Part shown: one piece after another, positions 7,540 through 59,337 of the stretch
Position numbering within the stretch: the first letter of the stretch is position 1
Layout of the letters: the number at the start of each line of letters is the position of its first letter
Sequence record: PP488543.1
Reading direction: 5' to 3' (one strand)
Length of the DNA: 64,000 nucleotides
DNA from: Escherichia phage BP9
The notes under the pieces: generated by a model
Told to the model about the DNA's origin: nothing
The model's input: the letters and a program-made list of their open reading frames with translations, nothing else
The model's database searches: none
Made by a program: the position numbers and the translations under genes

Positions 7540-8450
7540 ATTCCTGGCATATCAAGTATAAGGGGGATTTCTAAAATGGATTTCCTCCTTTTGATATTTC
7601 ACCGGACTGGATATTTTAAAATCCTTAGAAAATCAGAAAATAGATCGAAAACTAAAATGGATTTTTCAGAGTAGGCGCGACAAGCTGAATCACTCATCCT
7701 ATCGTTTGCACCATATTCCAGACCACCATTACAGATTTCCCGCACATGCTCACATCCTTCTACTAGAACTTCCCCCACTTAACATTGACCTTTTATGGTA
7801 ATAATATAACCACTATCTTGAAGTTGCGGTGCAGCTTTCCATGTACTCGATCTGTTTTTCGTTTCAAAGATTGAATTTTCTGAAAATTTTTCTCGATAAA
7901 TTTCCCAGTACTCGATCTGTTTTTCGTTTTCTGAATCGGATTTTCTGGAAATCGTTCCAGCTCTCGACCTGAAATTTTTGGGGACGAAATCGATTTTTCG
8001 TTTTCAGAAATGGATTTTTAAAATTTCTATATGGGAATATTTTATGGGATACTGTTTTATAGGAAATTGTTACGGAGGGTAATTAGCATGCTAATTAAAT
8101 TTATTAAATGCGAGGAGTTCTCATTTAGAATTTTGAATGATAATCATTCTCGTTTGCAGAATAACGGGCACCCCCGGTGATTGTCTCCCGGCCCCTACTG
8201 CCCCGGCTTGTTATTATAGTATCACACAGGACAAAGAAAGCAAGAAGTTTTTGCATAAATTTTTAGACGATAATGATAATCGTTCTCATTTCATGCAGCG
8301 CCCATCCCCGGTGGTTGTCTCCCCCGTCACCGGTGCCTGCCGTCCTTTCGATATGTATATTGTGCCACCTGGCGGGGCCGCTGTCAACACTTTTCAAAAA
8401 AAAATTCTAACCTGATGCGCTAACCGCTGCAACCTGGCGGGGCCAGCCTG
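7540..8450. repeat. repeat-rich noncoding boundary region
   Basis: Direct repeats TACTCGATCTGTTTTTCGTTTT (x2), AAAATGGATTT (x3) and GC-rich CCCCGGTG(A/G)TTGTCTCCC (x2); no convincing ORF. Confidence 0.5.
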
Positions 8451-9428: not shown

Positions 9429-9456
9429 TTGACACGCTGCAAAATTCAAGTAAACT
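9429..9456 (+). promoter_or_regulatory. sigma70-like promoter
   Basis: TTGACA 9429-9434, TAAACT 9451-9456; followed by leader hairpin GGCGGGAA-TGT-TTCCCGCC (9467-9485). Confidence 0.4.
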
Positions 9457-9505: not shown

Positions 9506-9901
9506 ATGAATAAGAACGTACGCCGCATCATGAACGAACTGGCAAACGATGAAAAAATTATTGATATGCATTTGGTCAACATTTGCCGCCGTTGTGTAAC
9601 ATACAACAACCGCGCCGCGAAAGCGCGTGAGATGAACGCAAAAGGCACCTTAAAGCCCTTTCAGGTGGTTGTAAAATCTATAACTAGCGCAGCAGGCCAG
9701 GCGCATGACCACAACAACGAGAGCGCTAATATTGATCCGTCTTACGTAATGAAACGGATCCGGACTTGCAAGAATAAAGAGCAGGTGTATAACGTCATAG
9801 ATTGGCTGGACTCCCTGGGCGATGTGGTTTACAATAGGTTTTCTGCAGCTATTGAGATTCAGTTAGACAGGTTGGACGGGAAAGTACTGAAAACTTACTG
9901 A
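9506..9901 (+). CDS. hypothetical protein (131 aa)
   Basis: ATG 9506 after GGAAAAAAGATC; in frame with track ORF 9407. Confidence 0.55.
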   Translation: MNKNVRRIMNELANDEKIIDMHLVNICRRCVTYNNRAAKAREMNAKGTLKPFQVVVKSITSAAGQAHDHNNESANIDPSYVMKRIRTCKNKEQVYNVIDWLDSLGDVVYNRFSAAIEIQLDRLDGKVLKTY

Positions 9902-9912
9902 GTTTATTTTTA

Positions 9913-9936
9913 GATGGCCTTGACTCCAGGGCCATC
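9913..9936. promoter_or_regulatory. palindromic element GATGGCC-N10-GGCCATC (copy 1)
   Basis: 7-bp inverted repeat; loop TTGACTCCAG carries a -35-like TTGACT; TAAACT about 18 bp downstream. Confidence 0.45.
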
Positions 9937-10098
9937 AATAAAGTAAACTAACCACAGTTGAGCGGAAAGGGGCTTAAAGATGAGTACTACACGCCAGCAC
10001 ACAAAGGTAACTATTATCGTTTGCATCATTGGTTACATCCTGGCGCAAATGTTGATGGGTAGCGCCAACGGTGTAGCAAAATTTTTCTTAAACTTTTA

Positions 10099-10126
10099 AT
10101 TGACAAGCTAACTTAAATCAGTATAC
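10099..10126 (+). promoter_or_regulatory. sigma70-like promoter (TTGACA-16-TATACT)
   Basis: Followed by leader hairpin GGGAA-AAC-TTCCC (10140-10152). Confidence 0.45.
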
Positions 10127-10178
10127 TTAAACACGTAAACGGGAAAACTTCCCAAAGCACACAAAAGGAGAAAACACT

Positions 10179-10520
10179 ATGACTACTATGACCGCCACAG
10201 AAAAAGCTATGCAGATCGCCGCGCTGAAAAAACAGATCGCAGACCTTGAGAACAAGATCGATAATTTTGAAATCGACGAGGACAAGTACGACGAAAACTA
10301 TGATGAATGGTTAGACGAGATCTATGGCGAAATTATGATCGGAAACATTTCTTTTCTTCCGTCGCGTATCCTCAAGGAGTTAGATCCTATCGCTTACCGC
10401 TGCGGATTTAGCGACTACATCGACAGCCTGGATATTGAGGACGATGAAGAATACCAGGAATTGCAAACAGAGCTTGAAGAAGTGAAAGAAGAGCTTGCAG
10501 AACTGGAAGAAAACGAGTAA
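10179..10520 (+). CDS. highly acidic coiled-coil protein (113 aa)
   Basis: RBS AAAAGGAG; very D/E-rich sequence (DEDKYDENYDEWLDEIYGE...EDDEEYQELQTELEE). Confidence 0.55.
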   Translation: MTTMTATEKAMQIAALKKQIADLENKIDNFEIDEDKYDENYDEWLDEIYGEIMIGNISFLPSRILKELDPIAYRCGFSDYIDSLDIEDDEEYQELQTELEEVKEELAELEENE

Positions 10521-10531
10521 ATTTATTTTTA

Positions 10532-10555
10532 GATGGCCTTGACTCCAGGGCCATC
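10532..10555. promoter_or_regulatory. palindromic element GATGGCC-N10-GGCCATC (copy 2)
   Basis: Identical to copy 1, directly after stop of 10179..10520. Confidence 0.45.
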
Positions 10556-10609
10556 AATAAAGTAAACTTTACACTGTTAACACTGAACTAATACAGAGGA
10601 GTTAAAACA

Positions 10610-10855
10610 ATGGCCGCACTAATTACCAAGTATTATGCCCCTACCAACACCAAAAGCGCCCGTATCATGGTAAAAGGCTTCGGACGTAAAAAGGTTTACA
10701 CCTGGGATTATGCCTTAGACACGGAAGACAACTACACCAACGCGATGACCGATTTTATTAATGATCTGAACACGCGGATCTTGACAAATTATCAAATTAC
10801 CGATATCGCCTATATAGGGGAAGGCGGAATCTGTTTTGTCGGTATCGTCAAATAA
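10610..10855 (+). CDS. hypothetical protein (81 aa)
   Basis: RBS AGAGGAG upstream. Confidence 0.5.
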   Translation: MAALITKYYAPTNTKSARIMVKGFGRKKVYTWDYALDTEDNYTNAMTDFINDLNTRILTNYQITDIAYIGEGGICFVGIVK

Positions 10856-10866
10856 GCTGGTTTTTC

Positions 10867-10890
10867 GGTGGCCCTGGTAGCAGGGCCATC
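10867..10890. promoter_or_regulatory. palindromic element, variant (GGCCCTG-N4-CAGGGCC)
   Basis: Related inverted repeat after stop of 10610..10855. Confidence 0.35.
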
Positions 10891-10930
10891 TATAAAGATA
10901 GTTTATCAACACAATGAAAGGAGAAAGTAC

Positions 10931-11278
10931 ATGATCAGCGGGGCTAGTTTTATTATTGGCGCTATTGCTACGGCTTTAATTGTAAACAAGATCCAGGATA
11001 AAAAGGAAAGTACCGCCCTTGCAGAATATCCATTTTGGACATTCAACGATAATGAAGATTATATTATAAAGTATAAAAATAAAGAAGGTGACCAAGTAAC
11101 ACCGCGACCGATCCCGGCTTACAAAATGCAGGAAACACTGTACCGCCTGGAAGCTGGGGGCGCAAAAATTGTAGACTTTTGGGGATACGATCACACAGAT
11201 CAGGAAGTTATAAAGCGCCGTATCCGGGCTATTCAGGCCAATATTGAAGTTAGCAAGGGGGGAATATATGAAGATTAA
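10931..11278 (+). CDS. membrane protein (115 aa)
   Basis: ATG 10931 after GAAAGGAGAAAG; N-terminal hydrophobic helix. Confidence 0.5.
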   Translation: MISGASFIIGAIATALIVNKIQDKKESTALAEYPFWTFNDNEDYIIKYKNKEGDQVTPRPIPAYKMQETLYRLEAGGAKIVDFWGYDHTDQEVIKRRIRAIQANIEVSKGGIYED

Positions 11279-11465
11279 TTTTGAAAAGATTTTAAAGCGA
11301 TCTCATGATTCCGAAGAGCTGCCGGAACGCCGCCAGCGGAACAATAAACTGAATAAGCCAAAAAGATTTGGGAAGATCTGGCGGAATCATTATGATCGTA
11401 AATTGCCGGGCCTACTTTTGGAACGTGAACGACAAGCGGAACGATACCGCCACAAAGACAAATAG
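11268..11465 (+). CDS. basic hypothetical protein (65 aa)
   Basis: ATG after AAGGGGGGAATAT; R/K-rich. Confidence 0.4.
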   Translation: MKINFEKILKRSHDSEELPERRQRNNKLNKPKRFGKIWRNHYDRKLPGLLLERERQAERYRHKDK

Positions 11466-11473
11466 CAACCAAC

Positions 11474-11499
11474 GCCCCGCCATTGTGCGGGGCTTTTTA
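11474..11499 (+). terminator. intrinsic terminator
   Basis: GCCCCGC-CATTGT-GCGGGGC followed by TTTTTATTT. Confidence 0.6.
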
Positions 11500-11709
11500 T
11501 TTCTATCCCGCCGATAGCGCCCCTGGTTGGCCCTACAAGCGCCATAAAGGCCCCTACCTATGCAATCCCCTTTATTAACCTGAAAACATCGCCCAGGGCC
11601 GTTTTATGGTGTTAAAATATTATTGACAGTGATTTTATTTAAAGCTTGACACCTTGGAATAGTCCGGATATACTAACCACATCAAAGCAAGAAGGAAGGA
11701 GTAAACACT

Positions 11710-11970
11710 ATGCGTAAATTAAAAAATTTTGATAAAGTTGATATTGTCCTGAATAATTTTTACTACTGCAATAACAAGGCCGTTTGGTGGCGCGATAGTT
11801 CCACCGATAAAGTCAAGGCGCGCTTTCTCCAAGGGCACTGGCAAGGCCGCCCAGTGATTAAAATCACGGGGCAATTGGTAGCGTTTAAAAATTGCCGCCG
11901 TGTTGATGACGTTGAAGAGATTTTAAACATTTTGCGCCACAATAATTTAAAAAATAGTGTTGACAAGTAA
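11710..11970 (+). CDS. hypothetical protein (86 aa)
   Basis: RBS GGAAGGAG; TTGACA-17-TATACT upstream. Confidence 0.5.
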   Translation: MRKLKNFDKVDIVLNNFYYCNNKAVWWRDSSTDKVKARFLQGHWQGRPVIKITGQLVAFKNCRRVDDVEEILNILRHNNLKNSVDK

Positions 11971-11987
11971 ATCTCAATAAGTATAAT
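11960..11987 (+). promoter_or_regulatory. sigma70-like promoter (TTGACA-16-TATAAT)
   Basis: Followed by leader hairpin GGCGGGAA-AAC-TTCCCGCC (11998-12016). Confidence 0.5.
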
Positions 11988-12044
11988 TAAATACACAGGC
12001 GGGAAAACTTCCCGCCACTAACAAAGAAAACAGGAGAAAATATC

Positions 12045-12668
12045 ATGACCACCGTTAACATTACCACAGGTTACAATTTATCTTTCGACGTGCTGACCGA
12101 CGAACAAAAAGAAAAAGCCGTTGAAATGGTCCGCGAAAGAGAAGAACACAGCGGGGATAACTTTTTTCCAGAAAGTGTAATTGAAGACTATAAAGAATAT
12201 GTCTTTCCAGAGTATGGCCTTGAAGATACCGAAGTACATTGGTCCGGCTTTTGGTGCCAGGGTGATGGCGCGTCAATCAGTGCTGAAAACGTGGATTTAG
12301 AAAAATTCTTGCGTAAGGTCAAGTCTTTGACTAAATTCCGCTCAATTCGTCACTTGTTCGGCACAATGCACGATGGCGAGCTATCCGCAAGCGTTGAGCG
12401 TGATCCATATAGCCGCTATAGTCACGAAAACACTGTAAGCGGGTACATCGATACTACATGGCTAGACCTGACAGCCAAGCAAGAAAGTAAGGTTGAAGAG
12501 CTGGAAGAGCTGATCACCGAGACGGTACGGGAGCTATCCCGCAAGGTTTACGTAGACCTGGAGCAAGCTTATCTTGAACAATTTACTACCGAAAACCTGA
12601 TCGGCCTTATCGAGGCCAATGATTGGCGGTTTGATGTGGATGAATATGGCGAGATGACTTTTTCATAA
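12045..12668 (+). CDS. hypothetical acidic protein (207 aa)
   Basis: RBS CAGGAG upstream. Confidence 0.55.
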   Translation: MTTVNITTGYNLSFDVLTDEQKEKAVEMVREREEHSGDNFFPESVIEDYKEYVFPEYGLEDTEVHWSGFWCQGDGASISAENVDLEKFLRKVKSLTKFRSIRHLFGTMHDGELSASVERDPYSRYSHENTVSGYIDTTWLDLTAKQESKVEELEELITETVRELSRKVYVDLEQAYLEQFTTENLIGLIEANDWRFDVDEYGEMTFS

Positions 12669-12757
12669 ATAAAGTGTTGCAATAACCTAAAAACCTGCTA
12701 TATTAAAACTCAAGGGGCAAGACGTTTGCCCCCACACAAAACAAAGAGGAAAACATC

Positions 12758-13138
12758 ATGAAAAACACCACTAAAGCTATTGACACCGTTATGTTTAACC
12801 TGGTTACCTTTCGCGAGGATATGAAAGATCTTCCGCGTGAAACAGTGTGCGACCATATCGAAAACTATCGCAAACTAATCAAAGAGTTGCCTTTAAAACG
12901 TGATCAGTATGCGGCTAACGCCATGCTTAATGCCATGATCAAAAAGATGATCCAGTGTGATTTAACTCTGGCCTATGACTATGCGGGTGGTCGTTTTGCA
13001 GTATACAATCAGCCCGTGCCAGGTATGGGCACCACCGAAGAATTGCACGCGCTCAATCTAAAACAAGACGTGTGGGATAGTATGCCTCGCGTGGTGGTAT
13101 GGGTAGAAAGCGGAAAGATTTACGGCGATAATTTTTAA
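12758..13138 (+). CDS. hypothetical protein (126 aa)
   Basis: TTGCAA-17-TATATT promoter-like, leader hairpin GGGGCAAG-ACG-TTTGCCCC, RBS AAGAGGA. Confidence 0.55.
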   Translation: MKNTTKAIDTVMFNLVTFREDMKDLPRETVCDHIENYRKLIKELPLKRDQYAANAMLNAMIKKMIQCDLTLAYDYAGGRFAVYNQPVPGMGTTEELHALNLKQDVWDSMPRVVVWVESGKIYGDNF

Positions 13139-13148
13139 TCAGGTAACA

Positions 13149-13174
13149 GGCGGCATATTTGCCGCCTTATTGTT
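13149..13174 (+). terminator. intrinsic terminator
   Basis: GGCGGC-ATATTT-GCCGCC followed by TTATTGTT. Confidence 0.5.
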
Positions 13175-13202
13175 AATCAGAACTGTAAAAGAGGTACATA
13201 GA

Positions 13203-13574
13203 ATGGAATTTATTATTTTGGCTGTACTGGTTGCCTTGTTTAACGCCTGGATCGCTGGCAAGATGGGAAGATCCGCCTTTTTATGGTTTATTATATCTAT
13301 TTTCCTGGGGGTGGTTGCAACTATTGTATTGGTTATCCTTGCAATTGTTGACAAGGGGAATAATAGAAAGGGTAAAGTATTTTCAGACCTGTACGACGCT
13401 CAAACGTTTGTCAACGCCTATTATAGTGATCTTCCGGTCTCCTTGCGTTGCAGCCTTGCACAACAAGTTTTCGATGAAGCTAAAACCAGAGATCAAGCCC
13501 ATGAGATATGTTTAACTGAGGCGGATCGCCTATTTGAGAGGAATAGAAAATATGTGGGCCAACCGTTTAAATAA
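13203..13574 (+). CDS. membrane protein (123 aa)
   Basis: ATG 13203 after AAAGAGG; two hydrophobic helices. Confidence 0.5.
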   Translation: MEFIILAVLVALFNAWIAGKMGRSAFLWFIISIFLGVVATIVLVILAIVDKGNNRKGKVFSDLYDAQTFVNAYYSDLPVSLRCSLAQQVFDEAKTRDQAHEICLTEADRLFERNRKYVGQPFK

Positions 13575-13797
13575 TGCCACGTTAATTAATCCCTTTGGTG
13601 AAGATTTGAAGCCAGCCGCCTGGCGTGACGGATTCAATAACGAACGCTTTATTTTCAGGCCTGATCTTGAGGAATTTTATAACAATGGATCGAACAACAG
13701 CGGAGATAATTTTTCTTGTAATGTGCGTGGTGATGGTACTCCTGGGTGCCATTGTAAACCACGTCACTACTACCAGAAGGGAAGGGGGAGACGATGA
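13552..13797 (+). CDS. hypothetical protein (81 aa)
   Basis: ATG after GAGAGGA; overlaps previous gene end; frame choice uncertain (alternative 13625..13810). Confidence 0.3.
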   Translation: MWANRLNNATLINPFGEDLKPAAWRDGFNNERFIFRPDLEEFYNNGSNNSGDNFSCNVRGDGTPGCHCKPRHYYQKGRGRR

Positions 13798-13913
13798 CAC
13801 CCAAGGATAAGCCCCGCACCGATAAGGTGCGCCGCGTTATGGTATGGCTTGAGATTATCGCCCTTGAAATATTGCTAGGCGTAGGGATGTACTTTATCGC
13901 TGTAAGTAACTAA
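13794..13913 (+). CDS. small membrane peptide (39 aa)
   Basis: ATGA coupling, RBS GGGAGGGGGAG, single hydrophobic helix; not in track. Confidence 0.3.
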   Translation: MTPKDKPRTDKVRRVMVWLEIIALEILLGVGMYFIAVSN

Positions 13914-13917
13914 GAAC

Positions 13918-13944
13918 GGCCCCCGATCATGGGGGCCTATCTTT
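13918..13944 (+). terminator. intrinsic terminator
   Basis: GGCCCCC-GATCAT-GGGGGCC followed by TATCTTT. Confidence 0.5.
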
Positions 13945-14053
13945 AAAAAAAAAAATTCTTCCGTGGTGTTGCAATCCGGTCCGGAATGTGGATAATAACA
14001 ATCAACGGGGGAGCTAATCCCCACCACCACAAAAACCAGAAAGGAGAAACAAA

Positions 14054-14254
14054 ATGAGCAACAATATCCGCGTTATTAACTTCAAAAAAGAAGAAAAAAT
14101 TGCCGTGCTGATTGACGGTCAAGAAATCTTCAAGGGCGACTATGAAGATCATCAAACGGCGATTAGTATCACTCGCGTAATTGGTTATCATAATTTCTAC
14201 CCCCAAGGTGCTGAGGCAGCAGTTAAACGAATCAAAGAGATTGTAGGCCTGTAA
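14054..14254 (+). CDS. hypothetical protein (66 aa)
   Basis: Promoter-like TTGCAA..ATAATA, leader hairpin GGGGGAGCTAATCCCC, RBS AAAGGAG. Confidence 0.5.
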   Translation: MSNNIRVINFKKEEKIAVLIDGQEIFKGDYEDHQTAISITRVIGYHNFYPQGAEAAVKRIKEIVGL

Positions 14255-14266
14255 AATTTATTTTTA

Positions 14267-14290
14267 GATGGCCTTGACTTCAGGGCCATC
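14267..14290. promoter_or_regulatory. palindromic element GATGGCC-N10-GGCCATC (copy 3)
   Basis: One loop mismatch (TTGACTTCAG); directly after stop of 14054..14254. Confidence 0.45.
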
Positions 14291-14345
14291 AATAAAGTAA
14301 ATTTAAACCCTGTTAAAATAATCAGTGCAAAAAGGAGTAATGATC

Positions 14346-14645
14346 ATGTTTATACCCGCCAATAATCTTTATTTCTTTGATGGTCAGATCGTAGACGGTG
14401 TGGAAGTGGAGATCACTGGGTGCCCTGGTGGTCAGGCTATGACTTTTCGGAATAATGCCTTTGATGATTCTCATATCGTTATGAGAATGGAAGTTACAAA
14501 GCTGGACGACAAGAAAACGCTCATTGACTATTCCGTGAAAGATCATCCAGACTACCACATGATCTATGGTGATTTGTGCATTGTTGACCGTGACAAGGTG
14601 GGCGGCATTGTGATCGCTATTGTGAACGATGTTTTCTCTGTATAG
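14346..14645 (+). CDS. hypothetical protein (99 aa)
   Basis: ATG 14346 lies 8 nt after AAAGGAG; track start 14325 is GTG. Confidence 0.5.
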   Translation: MFIPANNLYFFDGQIVDGVEVEITGCPGGQAMTFRNNAFDDSHIVMRMEVTKLDDKKTLIDYSVKDHPDYHMIYGDLCIVDRDKVGGIVIAIVNDVFSV

Positions 14646-14868
14646 TTCCGGCAAATGATGCAAAATAAGGCCCCTAGCAGGGCCTGCAGCGATATAATCA
14701 CATAAAGGCTATGCGGTTGCATGGCCTTTATTATTTTGGCGTTACAGCGGTCCCCAAGGCGCTTAAAAAATTTTAAAGAAGTACTTGCATCAAGCCCTAC
14801 AATATGGATAATAGTACGTGTCAGGGGGGCGGCCCCAATCATTAACCGGATAGATAGGAGTTAAAATC

Positions 14869-15701: not shown

Positions 15702-15775
15702 AATAGTTTGACAACAATTACAAATCGGGTAGAATGTATTTCGTAGGGCGGCAATGATGCCGCCAACATGACAGA

Positions 15776-16039: not shown

Positions 16040-16150
16040 CAGAGGATCAGAAGATGGTTAAAAATAATTGTTGACACCAGGCGCGGATCTGGTAAAGTGT
16101 ACGACATAGGGCGGGGCAATAAGGCAACGCCCATTAATGAGGGTGGAATC

Positions 16151-17197: not shown

Positions 17198-17281
17198 AAT
17201 AGCTTGCATGATGTGCCGGATAGTGTAAGATGTGTTTTGTAGGGCGGCAATGGTGCCGCTCACCACTGGAAGGAAAACACC

Positions 17282-19547: not shown

Positions 19548-19697
19548 ACATAATATAAAAGCAGTAACCATCACCCCCGTGATAGTTTGTCTGCAAACTA
19601 TTAATCAGATCATAGTTGCCTTATATTTAGTTAATCATGACATAACAAGCAAGGCAACTATAGATCTTCTAATAGTTGCCCTGCTTTTATATTATGT
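19548..19697. repeat. 16-bp inverted repeat pair flanking a ~120-bp core
   Basis: CATAATATAAAAGCAG (19548-19563) and its reverse complement CTGCTTTTATATTATG (19682-19697); flanked by direct repeats ATGCAAACGAATGG(C/T)ATGGC. Confidence 0.5.
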
Positions 19698-58735: not shown

Positions 58736-59290
58736 ATGAAATACTTTGTAACAAGCGACACACACTTTCTCCACCAGCGGGTCATGGAGTTTGATTCATG
58801 TCAAAAACACAGATCTCAGTATGATCACAATCTTGACAGTATGAATGCGGGAATCATCGCCGAGTGGAACTCTGTTGTGTCACCTGCAGACACTGTGTTC
58901 CACTTGGGGGATATTGCGTGCACTAATGATAAGAATATCAACAACTTACTTCCAGATATTCTAAATATGTTGAACGGACATATTATTCTTGTTCGTGGCA
59001 ACCATGACACAAGGACGACTGTCAGAATTATGAAAGAGTTCTATCATGAGGTTGTAGATTATTACGAGCTTCGCCACAACAAGAATTTGATCTGTATGAG
59101 CCATTACCAATTTGCAAAGTGGAACAGAAAGCATCACGGATCAGTCCAACTGTTCGGTCATGCTCACGGAACCACACAACAGTTGTTTGGCAGGCAGCTT
59201 GATGTCGGTTGGGATGTGTGGGGGAGACTCTTACCATTAGAAGAGGCATACCGTATTGCAATGAGTTTTGCTATTGACAGCGGGGAGTAA
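58736..59290 (+). CDS. calcineurin-type metallophosphoesterase
   Basis: SDTHF, HLGDIA, VRGNHD, GHAHG metallophosphatase motifs. Confidence 0.65.
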   Translation: MKYFVTSDTHFLHQRVMEFDSCQKHRSQYDHNLDSMNAGIIAEWNSVVSPADTVFHLGDIACTNDKNINNLLPDILNMLNGHIILVRGNHDTRTTVRIMKEFYHEVVDYYELRHNKNLICMSHYQFAKWNRKHHGSVQLFGHAHGTTQQLFGRQLDVGWDVWGRLLPLEEAYRIAMSFAIDSGE

Positions 59291-59337
59291 TCCCTGCTAT
59301 TTTAAAGAAAATTGCCACACAAGGAGAATCAGGAGAT

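Follow-up and report, generated by a model that had tools for sequence, protein, structure and literature searches.

Four copies of a palindromic repeat (e1 to e4) follow stop codons within a 4.4-kb part of Escherichia phage BP9 (sequence record PP488543.1), of which we analysed a stretch of 64,000 nucleotides, referred to here as the window. We consider it probable, if well short of certain, that this repeat is a composite element of the promoter-early stem-loop (PeSL) type, in which an intercistronic RNA hairpin on the sense strand is combined with a sigma-70 early promoter and a substrate for recombination. The structure of the hairpin, its strand specificity, its covariation, the conservation of the promoter hexamers and the deletions with chimeric junctions are observed, and from these we infer promoter activity and an effect of the hairpin on RNA. 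The window represents an rV5-like Vequintavirus: over the 6 kb around the repeat, Escherichia phages Gotham and rV5 share 94% identity with it, as do more than 100 further Vequintavirus records, and in rV5 terms the locus is the ORF175-197 portion of a leftward unit with many short open reading frames (ORFs).

The repeat copies and their sense-strand hairpin

The 24-nt sequence GATGGCCTTGACTCCAGGGCCATC occurs exactly at 9913-9936 (e1) and 10532-10555 (e2) and with one loop mismatch at 14267-14290 (e4), and a diverged copy, GGTGGCCCTGGTAGCAGGGCCATC, lies at 10867-10890 (e3), all as located in the first-pass annotation of this DNA. None of these copies is expected by chance, with 0 matches to GATGGCCTTGACTCCAGGGCCATC in shuffled versions of the window. 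Each palindrome begins 11-12 nt past a stop codon, and the recurrent flanks that had been noticed were found as well: TTTATTTTTAG precedes the three main copies and AATAAAGTAAAC/T comes after them, while the variant copy e3 is flanked by CTGGTTTTTCG and TATAAAGATAG. The conserved block measures 47-57 nt, and a repeat finder placed all four copies in a single 57-nt family (D1). A covariance model built from the copies detected no fifth one in the 64-kb window, which sets the number of occurrences there at four.

When the 55-nt block was folded as + strand RNA, a lower, A-U stem of 10-13 bp was separated by a 2x3 internal loop from a 10-bp upper stem, which is capped by a 4-nt loop (10 + 10 bp in all, with 11 in e4 and 10 + 13 in e3). 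The upper stem corresponds to the palindrome and contains one U.G pair, and the 5' arm of the lower stem begins in or beside the stop codon, which sits at the base of the extended hairpin. The palindrome that had been reported is therefore present, but not with the proposed 7 + 10 + 7 architecture, as its stem really has 10 bp including one T.G pair and its loop 4 nt; moreover, the 24 nt that had been taken for the whole element form only the upper half of a 20-bp two-tier hairpin. Predicted energies on the + strand were -25.1, -26.4 and -23.6 kcal/mol for e1, e3 and e4 (z-scores of -5 to -8; e1, -7.6), and on the - strand -16.8, -15.3 and -15.4 kcal/mol, respectively. Among the 56-nt folds from a sliding scan of the two strands of the window, e3 ranked 5th, e1 10th and e4 12th in stability.

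For comparison we drew 85 copies from the window, from 17 GenBank phages and from IMG/VR and metagenome contigs, together 27 Vequintavirus loci; these copies reduce to 40 distinct 78-nt rows in a gap-free alignment. Across these 40 copies, standard pairs fill 97.9% of the pair cells of the two-tier structure. Four lower-stem pairs have changed on both sides (G-C/A-U/G.U; U-A/C-G; U-A/A-U/G.U/G-C; A-U/U-A), and 0 of 500 shuffles reached the observed percentage paired, the number of cells changed on both sides or the covariation score. When the partners were slid by 1-3 columns, pairing fell to at most 57%. In the upper stem, all recurrent polymorphisms keep the pairing by way of wobble (A-U/G.U, C-G/U.G, U.G/C-G/U-A, G-C/G.U), and a pair is broken in only two single sequences. 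The + strand holds 104 G.U cells versus 8 A.C cells, and a minus-strand reading of the same pairs leaves 85.9% paired. Because the G.U pairing is strand-specific and the lower stem compensatory, these data indicate that the conserved object is an RNA structure of the sense strand and not a symmetric site in double-stranded DNA (dsDNA).

This bears directly on the proposal in the first-pass annotation, a promoter embedded in a palindromic operator for a dimeric regulator. Such a regulator, of phage or host origin, would bind dsDNA around a sigma-70 promoter, and three promoters of the window indeed share identical 7-bp arms centred near -35; perfect DNA palindromes centred on -35 are also present in phages SSBI34 (GGTGTTGACACC) and FKP3 (AAGGTTGACAACCTT), described below. 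An operator would, however, have two equivalent half-sites conserved in sequence. Here the half-sites differ, only at wobble-compatible positions and on one strand: the common arm polymorphisms all preserve G.U pairing in the sense strand (A/G opposite U; C/U opposite G), which makes the dsDNA half-sites unequal. The pairing also runs on through a second, A-U-rich stem with compensatory changes, beyond any plausible operator. In addition, e3 keeps the palindrome, and with it the complete hairpin, in spite of having lost both promoter hexamers, and only 3-4 of more than 20 early promoters carry the arms. We therefore regard an operator as very improbable; the promoter half of the proposal is plausible and has gained support, as set out in the next section.

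With a 55-nt query, the element was found in 120 records, all of them Vequintavirus, at about three BLAST-detectable places per record and always at orthologous sites. Complete E. coli genomes contained no match, which rules out a host REP-like sequence, and Rfam held nothing relevant. Scans of IMG/VR and metagenomes anchored only on the AT-rich flanks returned ~150 loci, all but about a dozen of which were AT-rich chance matches; the palindromic matches among them all had the rV5-type core and hence add no independent covariation. The covariance model found no further copies in the SSBI34 or FKP3 loci. Existing annotations of the four sites conflict: in Gotham, e2 and e4 are promoters (the PhagePromoter feature is exactly the 30-nt TTGACT..TAAACT stretch), in Murica, e3 and e4 are 45-nt terminators, and in rV5 all four are unmarked. 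The literature searched contains no previous account of the element. A 'repeat_region' annotated in phage isim is unrelated, as it lies within ORF192.

Putative promoter hexamers within the hairpin

A promoter scan identified TTGACT-N18-TAAACT or TAAATT (9 of 12 matches) at 9920, 10539 and 14274, with the -35 hexamer at the apex of the hairpin. The earlier observation of a -35-like TTGACT in the loop, followed about 18 bp downstream by a -10-like hexamer, was thereby confirmed for e1, e2 and e4; e3 lacks both hexamers. Among the main copies, TTGAC is altered in one sequence only (TTTACT, locus L117), whereas the sixth -35 base takes all four states and the following base two. In the -10 hexamer, positions 1, 2 and 6 are retained with one exception (TAAACG). 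For comparison, the canonical early promoters of this phage read TTGACA-N16/17-TAnnnT, with an A/T-rich tract upstream and usually a G+C hairpin a few bases past the -10.

Loci outside the genus were located via homologs of ORF192. In Salmonella phage SSBI34 (Vequintavirinae; record without genus), a stop codon is followed by TTATTTTCGTTTTAGGTG-TTGA-CACCGAAACCGAATAAAAG-CATAAT, which forms a two-tier hairpin with two G.U pairs, an apical TTGACA and a -10 CATAAT at N17. In the phi92-like Klebsiella phage FKP3 (Justusliebigvirus), AAGGTTGACAACCTT and then AAAATAAAGTAAACTGTTAA provide TTGACA-N16 ahead of the usual 5' hairpin, and the -10 region of the element, AATAAAGTAAACT..GTTAA, reappears after this perfect TTGACA-N16. 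Other gaps in FKP3 and SSBI34 have TATAAT in a hairpin loop, or a spacer hairpin. Given the hexamer conservation and these parallels, the hexamers of the element are probably functional, and the promoter placed within a predicted hairpin is a recurring design in this phage group.

It is nonetheless conceivable, if unlikely, that the repeat is purely an RNA element, namely a processing or stabilising hairpin (a T7-type RNase III site or an exonuclease barrier) with incidental hexamers. Expression of the downstream genes would then depend entirely on read-through from strong promoters at 9429, 10100 and ~13969. The hairpin is the sole feature common to all four copies, e3 being without hexamers, and since the -10 lies in the lower stem and a T of TTGAC in a wobble pair, pairing could explain the conservation of both. 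A promoter match of 9/12 with an 18-bp spacer is also equalled by chance about once per 435 nt of the region, both strands counted. Furthermore, the geometry equals that of the T7 R1 site, and the U-A/U.G doublet by the loop-closing pair fits the distal box of the RNase III substrate uR1.1. Against this reading stands the loop, where the A and C of TTGAC are invariant and the other two bases take up to four states. Also against it are a T-rich UP-like tract at the correct distance, the identical -10 region used with TTGACA-N16 in FKP3, the -35 or -10 hexamers within hairpins of two other genera, and TTGACA-N17-GATAAT in the chimeric copy of phage 241Ecol014PP.

Read-through, possible processing and recombination at the repeat

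The first-pass annotation had found no canonical hairpin plus U-tract terminator on either strand, and our terminator scan likewise flagged no copy: the stem is followed directly by AAUAAAG on the + strand and by UAAAAAU on the - strand. The first canonical terminator downstream of e3 lies at 11474-11493, and two genes precede it. As the promoter scan found no promoter-like site between e3 and the next start codon, transcription must traverse e3 to reach these genes, and, judged from this arrangement, the element cannot be an efficient terminator. An efficient terminator, intrinsic or factor-assisted, which would split the genes into separate transcription units, is thus improbable. The stem is very stable, the annotators of Murica placed terminators at e3 and e4, and PeSL stem-loops cut read-through in a lacZ reporter assay; yet no U-tract follows the stem on either strand, whereas the real terminator at 11474 has UUUUUAUUU, and the two genes behind the promoterless e3 need read-through. 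Since a U-tract is lacking on both sides, a processing or stability signal, or else a weak attenuator, is the better interpretation of the hairpin.

Substrates of E. coli RNase III typically comprise two helical turns, and internal loops in them confine the cut to a single strand, with a protective 3' hairpin remaining (PMC1540722). The minimal substrate uR1.1 consists of an 11-bp helix and a tetraloop, and its distal box is made up of the U-A and U.G pairs beside the loop-closing pair. The element has about two helical turns of double-stranded RNA (10 + 10 bp), interrupted by a 2x3 internal loop as predicted for T7 R1, and U-A/U.G pairs at the distal-box position in e1, e2 and e4 (C-G in most e3 copies). 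RNase III would accordingly be the favoured agent acting on a putative cleavage site, an assignment that is tentative and that we hold at about one in three.

We also folded the T7 early region, with the RNase III sites at what we take to be their positions; the R1.1 sequence obtained in this way agrees with the base-pair numbering in PMC1540722. All five early sites (R0.3, R0.5, R1, R1.1 and R1.3) came out as two-tier hairpins, in which an internal loop lies between the lower stem and an upper stem of 9-13 bp and the terminal loop has 3-5 nt; in R1, a 2x3 internal loop separates the lower stem from a 9-bp upper stem that ends in a 4-nt loop. The element resembles them in this structure, in its intercistronic position in a putative sigma-70-driven early polycistronic RNA, and in adjoining or overlapping promoters, as the T7 sites do with E. 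coli promoters B and C, phi1.1A and phi1.3. It differs from them in the lack of sequence homology, in an upper stem 1 bp under the 11-bp minimum, in a proximal box that fits only in part and in a cleavage that is putative. A likeness of its arms to T7 R1.1 (GGCC/GGUC cores) was dropped, as it needs swapped arms and is too short to mean anything. As a separate observation, the rV5 ORF189 homolog (11275-11472) is called 'T7 gp1.1-like' in Murica, I29 and 241Ecol014PP; gene 1.1 of T7 is immediately preceded by the R1.1 RNase III site.

If the composite reading is right, the ~50-nt block would fold in read-through sense transcripts into the two-tier hairpin based on the stop codon, and would define and protect the 3' end of the cistron before it, most likely in that RNase III cuts one strand within the 2x3 internal loop or in that the hairpin stops 3' exonucleases; attenuation would be partial at most. 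In three of the four copies, the promoter, consisting of a T-rich UP-like tract, the apical -35 TTGACN, the 18-bp spacer and the -10 TAAAYT, would restart transcription ~25-35 nt before the next start codon. The arms of the stem would make use of positions that the promoter leaves free (spacer and flanks), so that two signals would fit into a single gap of 70-90 nt. Finally, homologous recombination between the near-identical direct repeats of 47-57 bp would delete or convert the gene cassettes between them.

The copies can act as recombination substrates because they are near-identical direct repeats, and chimeric elements indeed mark the junctions at which relatives have lost gene cassettes. 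Phage phiWec189 has a single element with the left flank of e1 and the right flank of e2, and the intervening 619 bp (ORF193, a promoter and ORF192) are gone; ECP26, ECP32 and one IMG/VR contig have the same e1-left/e2-right junction. In 241Ecol014PP, the junction that replaces ORF191 joins the left part of e2 to the right part of e3, and the resulting sequence happens to be TTGACA-N17-GATAAT. Rare variants (loops ACAC, ACTT, ACCC and ACGC; GATTATT in the 5' arm) appear at differing paralogous sites across genomes, which suggests conversion between paralogous copies. Other indels of the region also end at hairpin/promoter junctions, for instance at 14638/14658. At the latter place (14638-14658), many relatives, among them EdH4, JEP1, inoa and WalterGehring, have an extra 351-nt ORF immediately before the hairpin AGGCCCCTAGCAGGGCCT and TATAAT.

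Loss of cassettes precisely between copies, together with an imperfect, strand-specific palindrome directly after ORFs, might instead point to a site-specific recombination site or a small mobile element (attC-like or MITE-like) that moves the cassettes. The integron core consensus is GTTRRRY, and downstream of e1, GTTGAGC/GTTAAGC fits it. This fit is confined to e1, without an inverse core upstream, and the crossovers occur anywhere within 40-60 nt of shared sequence, as predicted for homologous exchange; on these grounds the integron attC-like reading was dropped. Moreover, the copies number only four, all of them occupy fixed orthologous sites in ~120 genomes, and viral, metagenomic and E. 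coli collections contained no others. We consider a mobile element of this kind extremely improbable.

Several observations weigh against the composite reading. The covariation stems from few independent lineages (the main copies, two e3 alleles, and e1 versus e4). In e1 of Gotham (1413-1436 of locus L002, orthologous to 9913-9936), GGGCC is missing from the right arm, unless this is a sequencing error; the 5-nt deletion abolishes the hairpin and shortens the -35/-10 spacer to 13 bp. One main copy has TAAACG and another TTTACT, and, given these variants and the Gotham deletion, single copies are dispensable. The putative promoter of the element is weaker than the canonical TTGACA-N16/17 promoters of the phage, as it has TTGACT and an 18-bp, G+C-rich spacer, and its -10 doubles as the 3' arm of the lower stem, so that conservation there is explained twice. 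With respect to RNase III, the upper helix of 10 bp falls short of the 11-bp minimum of uR1.1, position 3 of the proximal box would be G-C where A-U is preferred, and position 4 would lie in the internal loop. The analogue in SSBI34 has only ~15 bp, and the literature searched contains no transcriptome for any rV5-like phage or Vequintavirus.

Table 1. Positions of the repeat copies, putative promoters, lost cassettes and terminator in the window
Feature	Position	Strand	Details
e1, two-tier hairpin	9901-9949	+	begins in the TGA stop (9899-9901) of the rV5 ORF194 homolog
e1, parts of the hairpin	lower stem 9901-9910/9940-9949; upper stem 9913-9922/9927-9936	+	loop 9923-9926; internal loop 9911-9912/9937-9939
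e1, putative sigma-70 promoter	9920-9949	+	-35 TTGACT 9920-9925; 18-bp spacer; -10 TAAACT 9944-9949
e1, surroundings of the putative promoter		+	T-rich UP-like tract 9903-9912; predicted start ~9956; next gene 9980
e2, hairpin as in e1	10520-10568	+	palindrome 10532-10555; after TAA 10518-10520 of the ORF192 homolog; next gene 10610
e2, hexamers	10539-10544; 10563-10568	+	TTGACT; TAAACT
e3 (variant), different lower stem and loop	10852-10906	+	palindrome 10867-10890; no -35/-10 hexamers
e3, setting		+	overlaps TAA 10853-10855 of the ORF191 homolog; next gene 10932
e4, hairpin as in e1	14254-14304	+	palindrome 14267-14290; loop ACTT; next gene ~14331-14337
e4, start		+	last base of TAA 14252-14254, ORF179 homolog
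e4, hexamers	14274-14279; 14298-14303	+	TTGACT; TAAATT
Cassette of ORF193, promoter at 10100, ORF192 and e2	9950-10568	+	absent from phiWec189, ECP26, ECP32 and one IMG/VR contig
Cassette of ORF191	10566-10860	+	absent from 241Ecol014PP; e2-left/e3-right chimera at the junction
Canonical intrinsic terminator	11474-11493	+	GC stem, then TTTTTATTTC / UUUUUAUUU; ends the unit that holds e1-e3

Resemblance to known cassettes and wider setting

PeSL cassettes have been described in the T4-like phages RB49/phi1, PST/T4 and nt-1/KVP40 (Arbiol et al. 2010, PMC2839356; Comeau et al. 2014, PMC4122927). They consist of a stop codon in an AT-rich tract, a sigma-70 promoter, a G-T-containing stem-loop in any of five positions (including over the -35), and a Shine-Dalgarno sequence (SD) with ATG; they cluster among small ORFs and at indel breakpoints, and degraded copies with only the stem-loop exist (PMC2839356; PMC4122927). 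Promoter, attenuator and mini-circle activities were measured for those of RB49, and PeSL stem-loops lowered read-through in a lacZ reporter (PMC2839356; PMC4122927).

At the level of sequence, all of the hallmarks of a PeSL are present in the element. Its stop codon lies in an AT-rich tract and is followed by a sigma-70-like -35/-10 pair at workable spacing (in e1, e2 and e4), with an SD and ATG close behind (the next starts are 26-41 nt past the hairpin). The stable stem-loop contains G-T pairs and overlaps the -35. The element is repeated among small ORFs of unknown function, with four copies in 4.4 kb, and coincides with indel breakpoints between close relatives, with deletions in at least five genomes or contigs; e3, a stem-loop without promoter hexamers, resembles a degraded PeSL. 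The differences are that the element occurs in Vequintavirinae, whereas PeSLs were reported only for T4-like phages, that this sequence family has four copies only, and that the two-tier 20-bp hairpin engulfs the stop codon, the -35 and the -10, whereas a PeSL has a short Gn-loop-Cn stem.

The window also contains other arrangements known for PeSLs, namely a spacer hairpin, a -10 in the loop, and a hairpin just past the start site. A second type of cassette is present as well, in which a near-consensus TTGACA-N16/17-TAnnnT is followed ~8-12 nt past the -10 by a G+C hairpin (for example CGGGAAAACTTCCCG) that would form the 5' end of the transcript. Such sites are found at 10100-10153, 11960-12013, 15724-15763 and 17220-17259, and also at 9429, 15443, 16071 and 17607; the first and second and the third and fourth are repeat pairs with 78-83% identity. 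Other subclasses are represented at 1027-1060, where a -10 TATAAT lies in the loop of GGGGCC...GGCCCC, and at 16071-16098 and 59274-59303, promoter-like sites with a spacer hairpin.

The element further resembles the sigma-70-like early promoters of Vequintavirinae described for rV5 (PMC3606486) and for Certrevirus CB7/CR3 (PMC7344957), which are of host type, have UP-like A/T tracts and cluster where short hypothetical ORFs lie. Both papers present promoters and terminators separately, and this repeat, promoter-overlapping hairpins and links to indels go unmentioned in them.

Some further features of the window were recorded alongside. A Fur-box-like sequence, GATAATGATAATCGTTCTC, at 8269-8287, in non-coding DNA that precedes the early genes, departs from the E. 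coli Fur consensus at 2 positions (0.03 chance matches expected), and a weaker copy, TGAATGATAATCATTCTCG, lies ~135 nt upstream at ~8134-8153; a similar GC-rich segment (CCCCGGTGATTGTCTCCC) comes after each. These sites could reflect iron-responsive control of the phage or titration of Fur by the phage. The ORF-free segment 7833-8018 has an iteron-like look, since a direct repeat of 47-57 nt occurs in it three times at spacings of 65 and 74 nt (core CGATCTGTTTTTCGTTTT ... GATTTTCTGGAAATC), and may be the 'non-coding' box of the rV5 paper. The 4th most stable 56-nt fold is a nearly perfect hairpin of ~21 bp (AAAGCAGGGCAACTATAG...) on the minus strand at ~19641-19690, on the far side of the small-ORF region; the rV5 paper anticipated a bidirectional terminator between genes 163 and 164, and this hairpin may be it. 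One place higher in stability ranks 59767-59822, a dense cluster of GTCCGT/ACGGAC inverted and direct repeats, which could be a multi-site protein-binding region or a structured RNA.

The individual readings can be joined into a bolder one, which we rate as rather improbable. The apical promoter hexamer would be a deliberate device of rV5-like and phi92-like phages, in which RNase III cuts read-through RNA at the next promoter, so that each small early gene has its own stabilised message and the promoter is insulated; the cassettes would be excised as circles and move genes between phages.

Altogether, the element is of a known kind and reveals no new mechanism. Our analysis would add the Vequintavirinae to the T4-like phages, until now the sole group with reported PeSL-type cassettes, and analogous designs are seen in a phi92-like phage. 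The strand-specific wobble pairs and compensatory changes constitute evidence for a stem-loop that acts in RNA, and the relatives that lack cassettes provide natural before-and-after cases of loss at the repeats. The composite reading would also resolve the conflicting annotation of the same sites as promoters in Gotham, as terminators in Murica and as nothing in rV5, and it predicts exact transcript ends.

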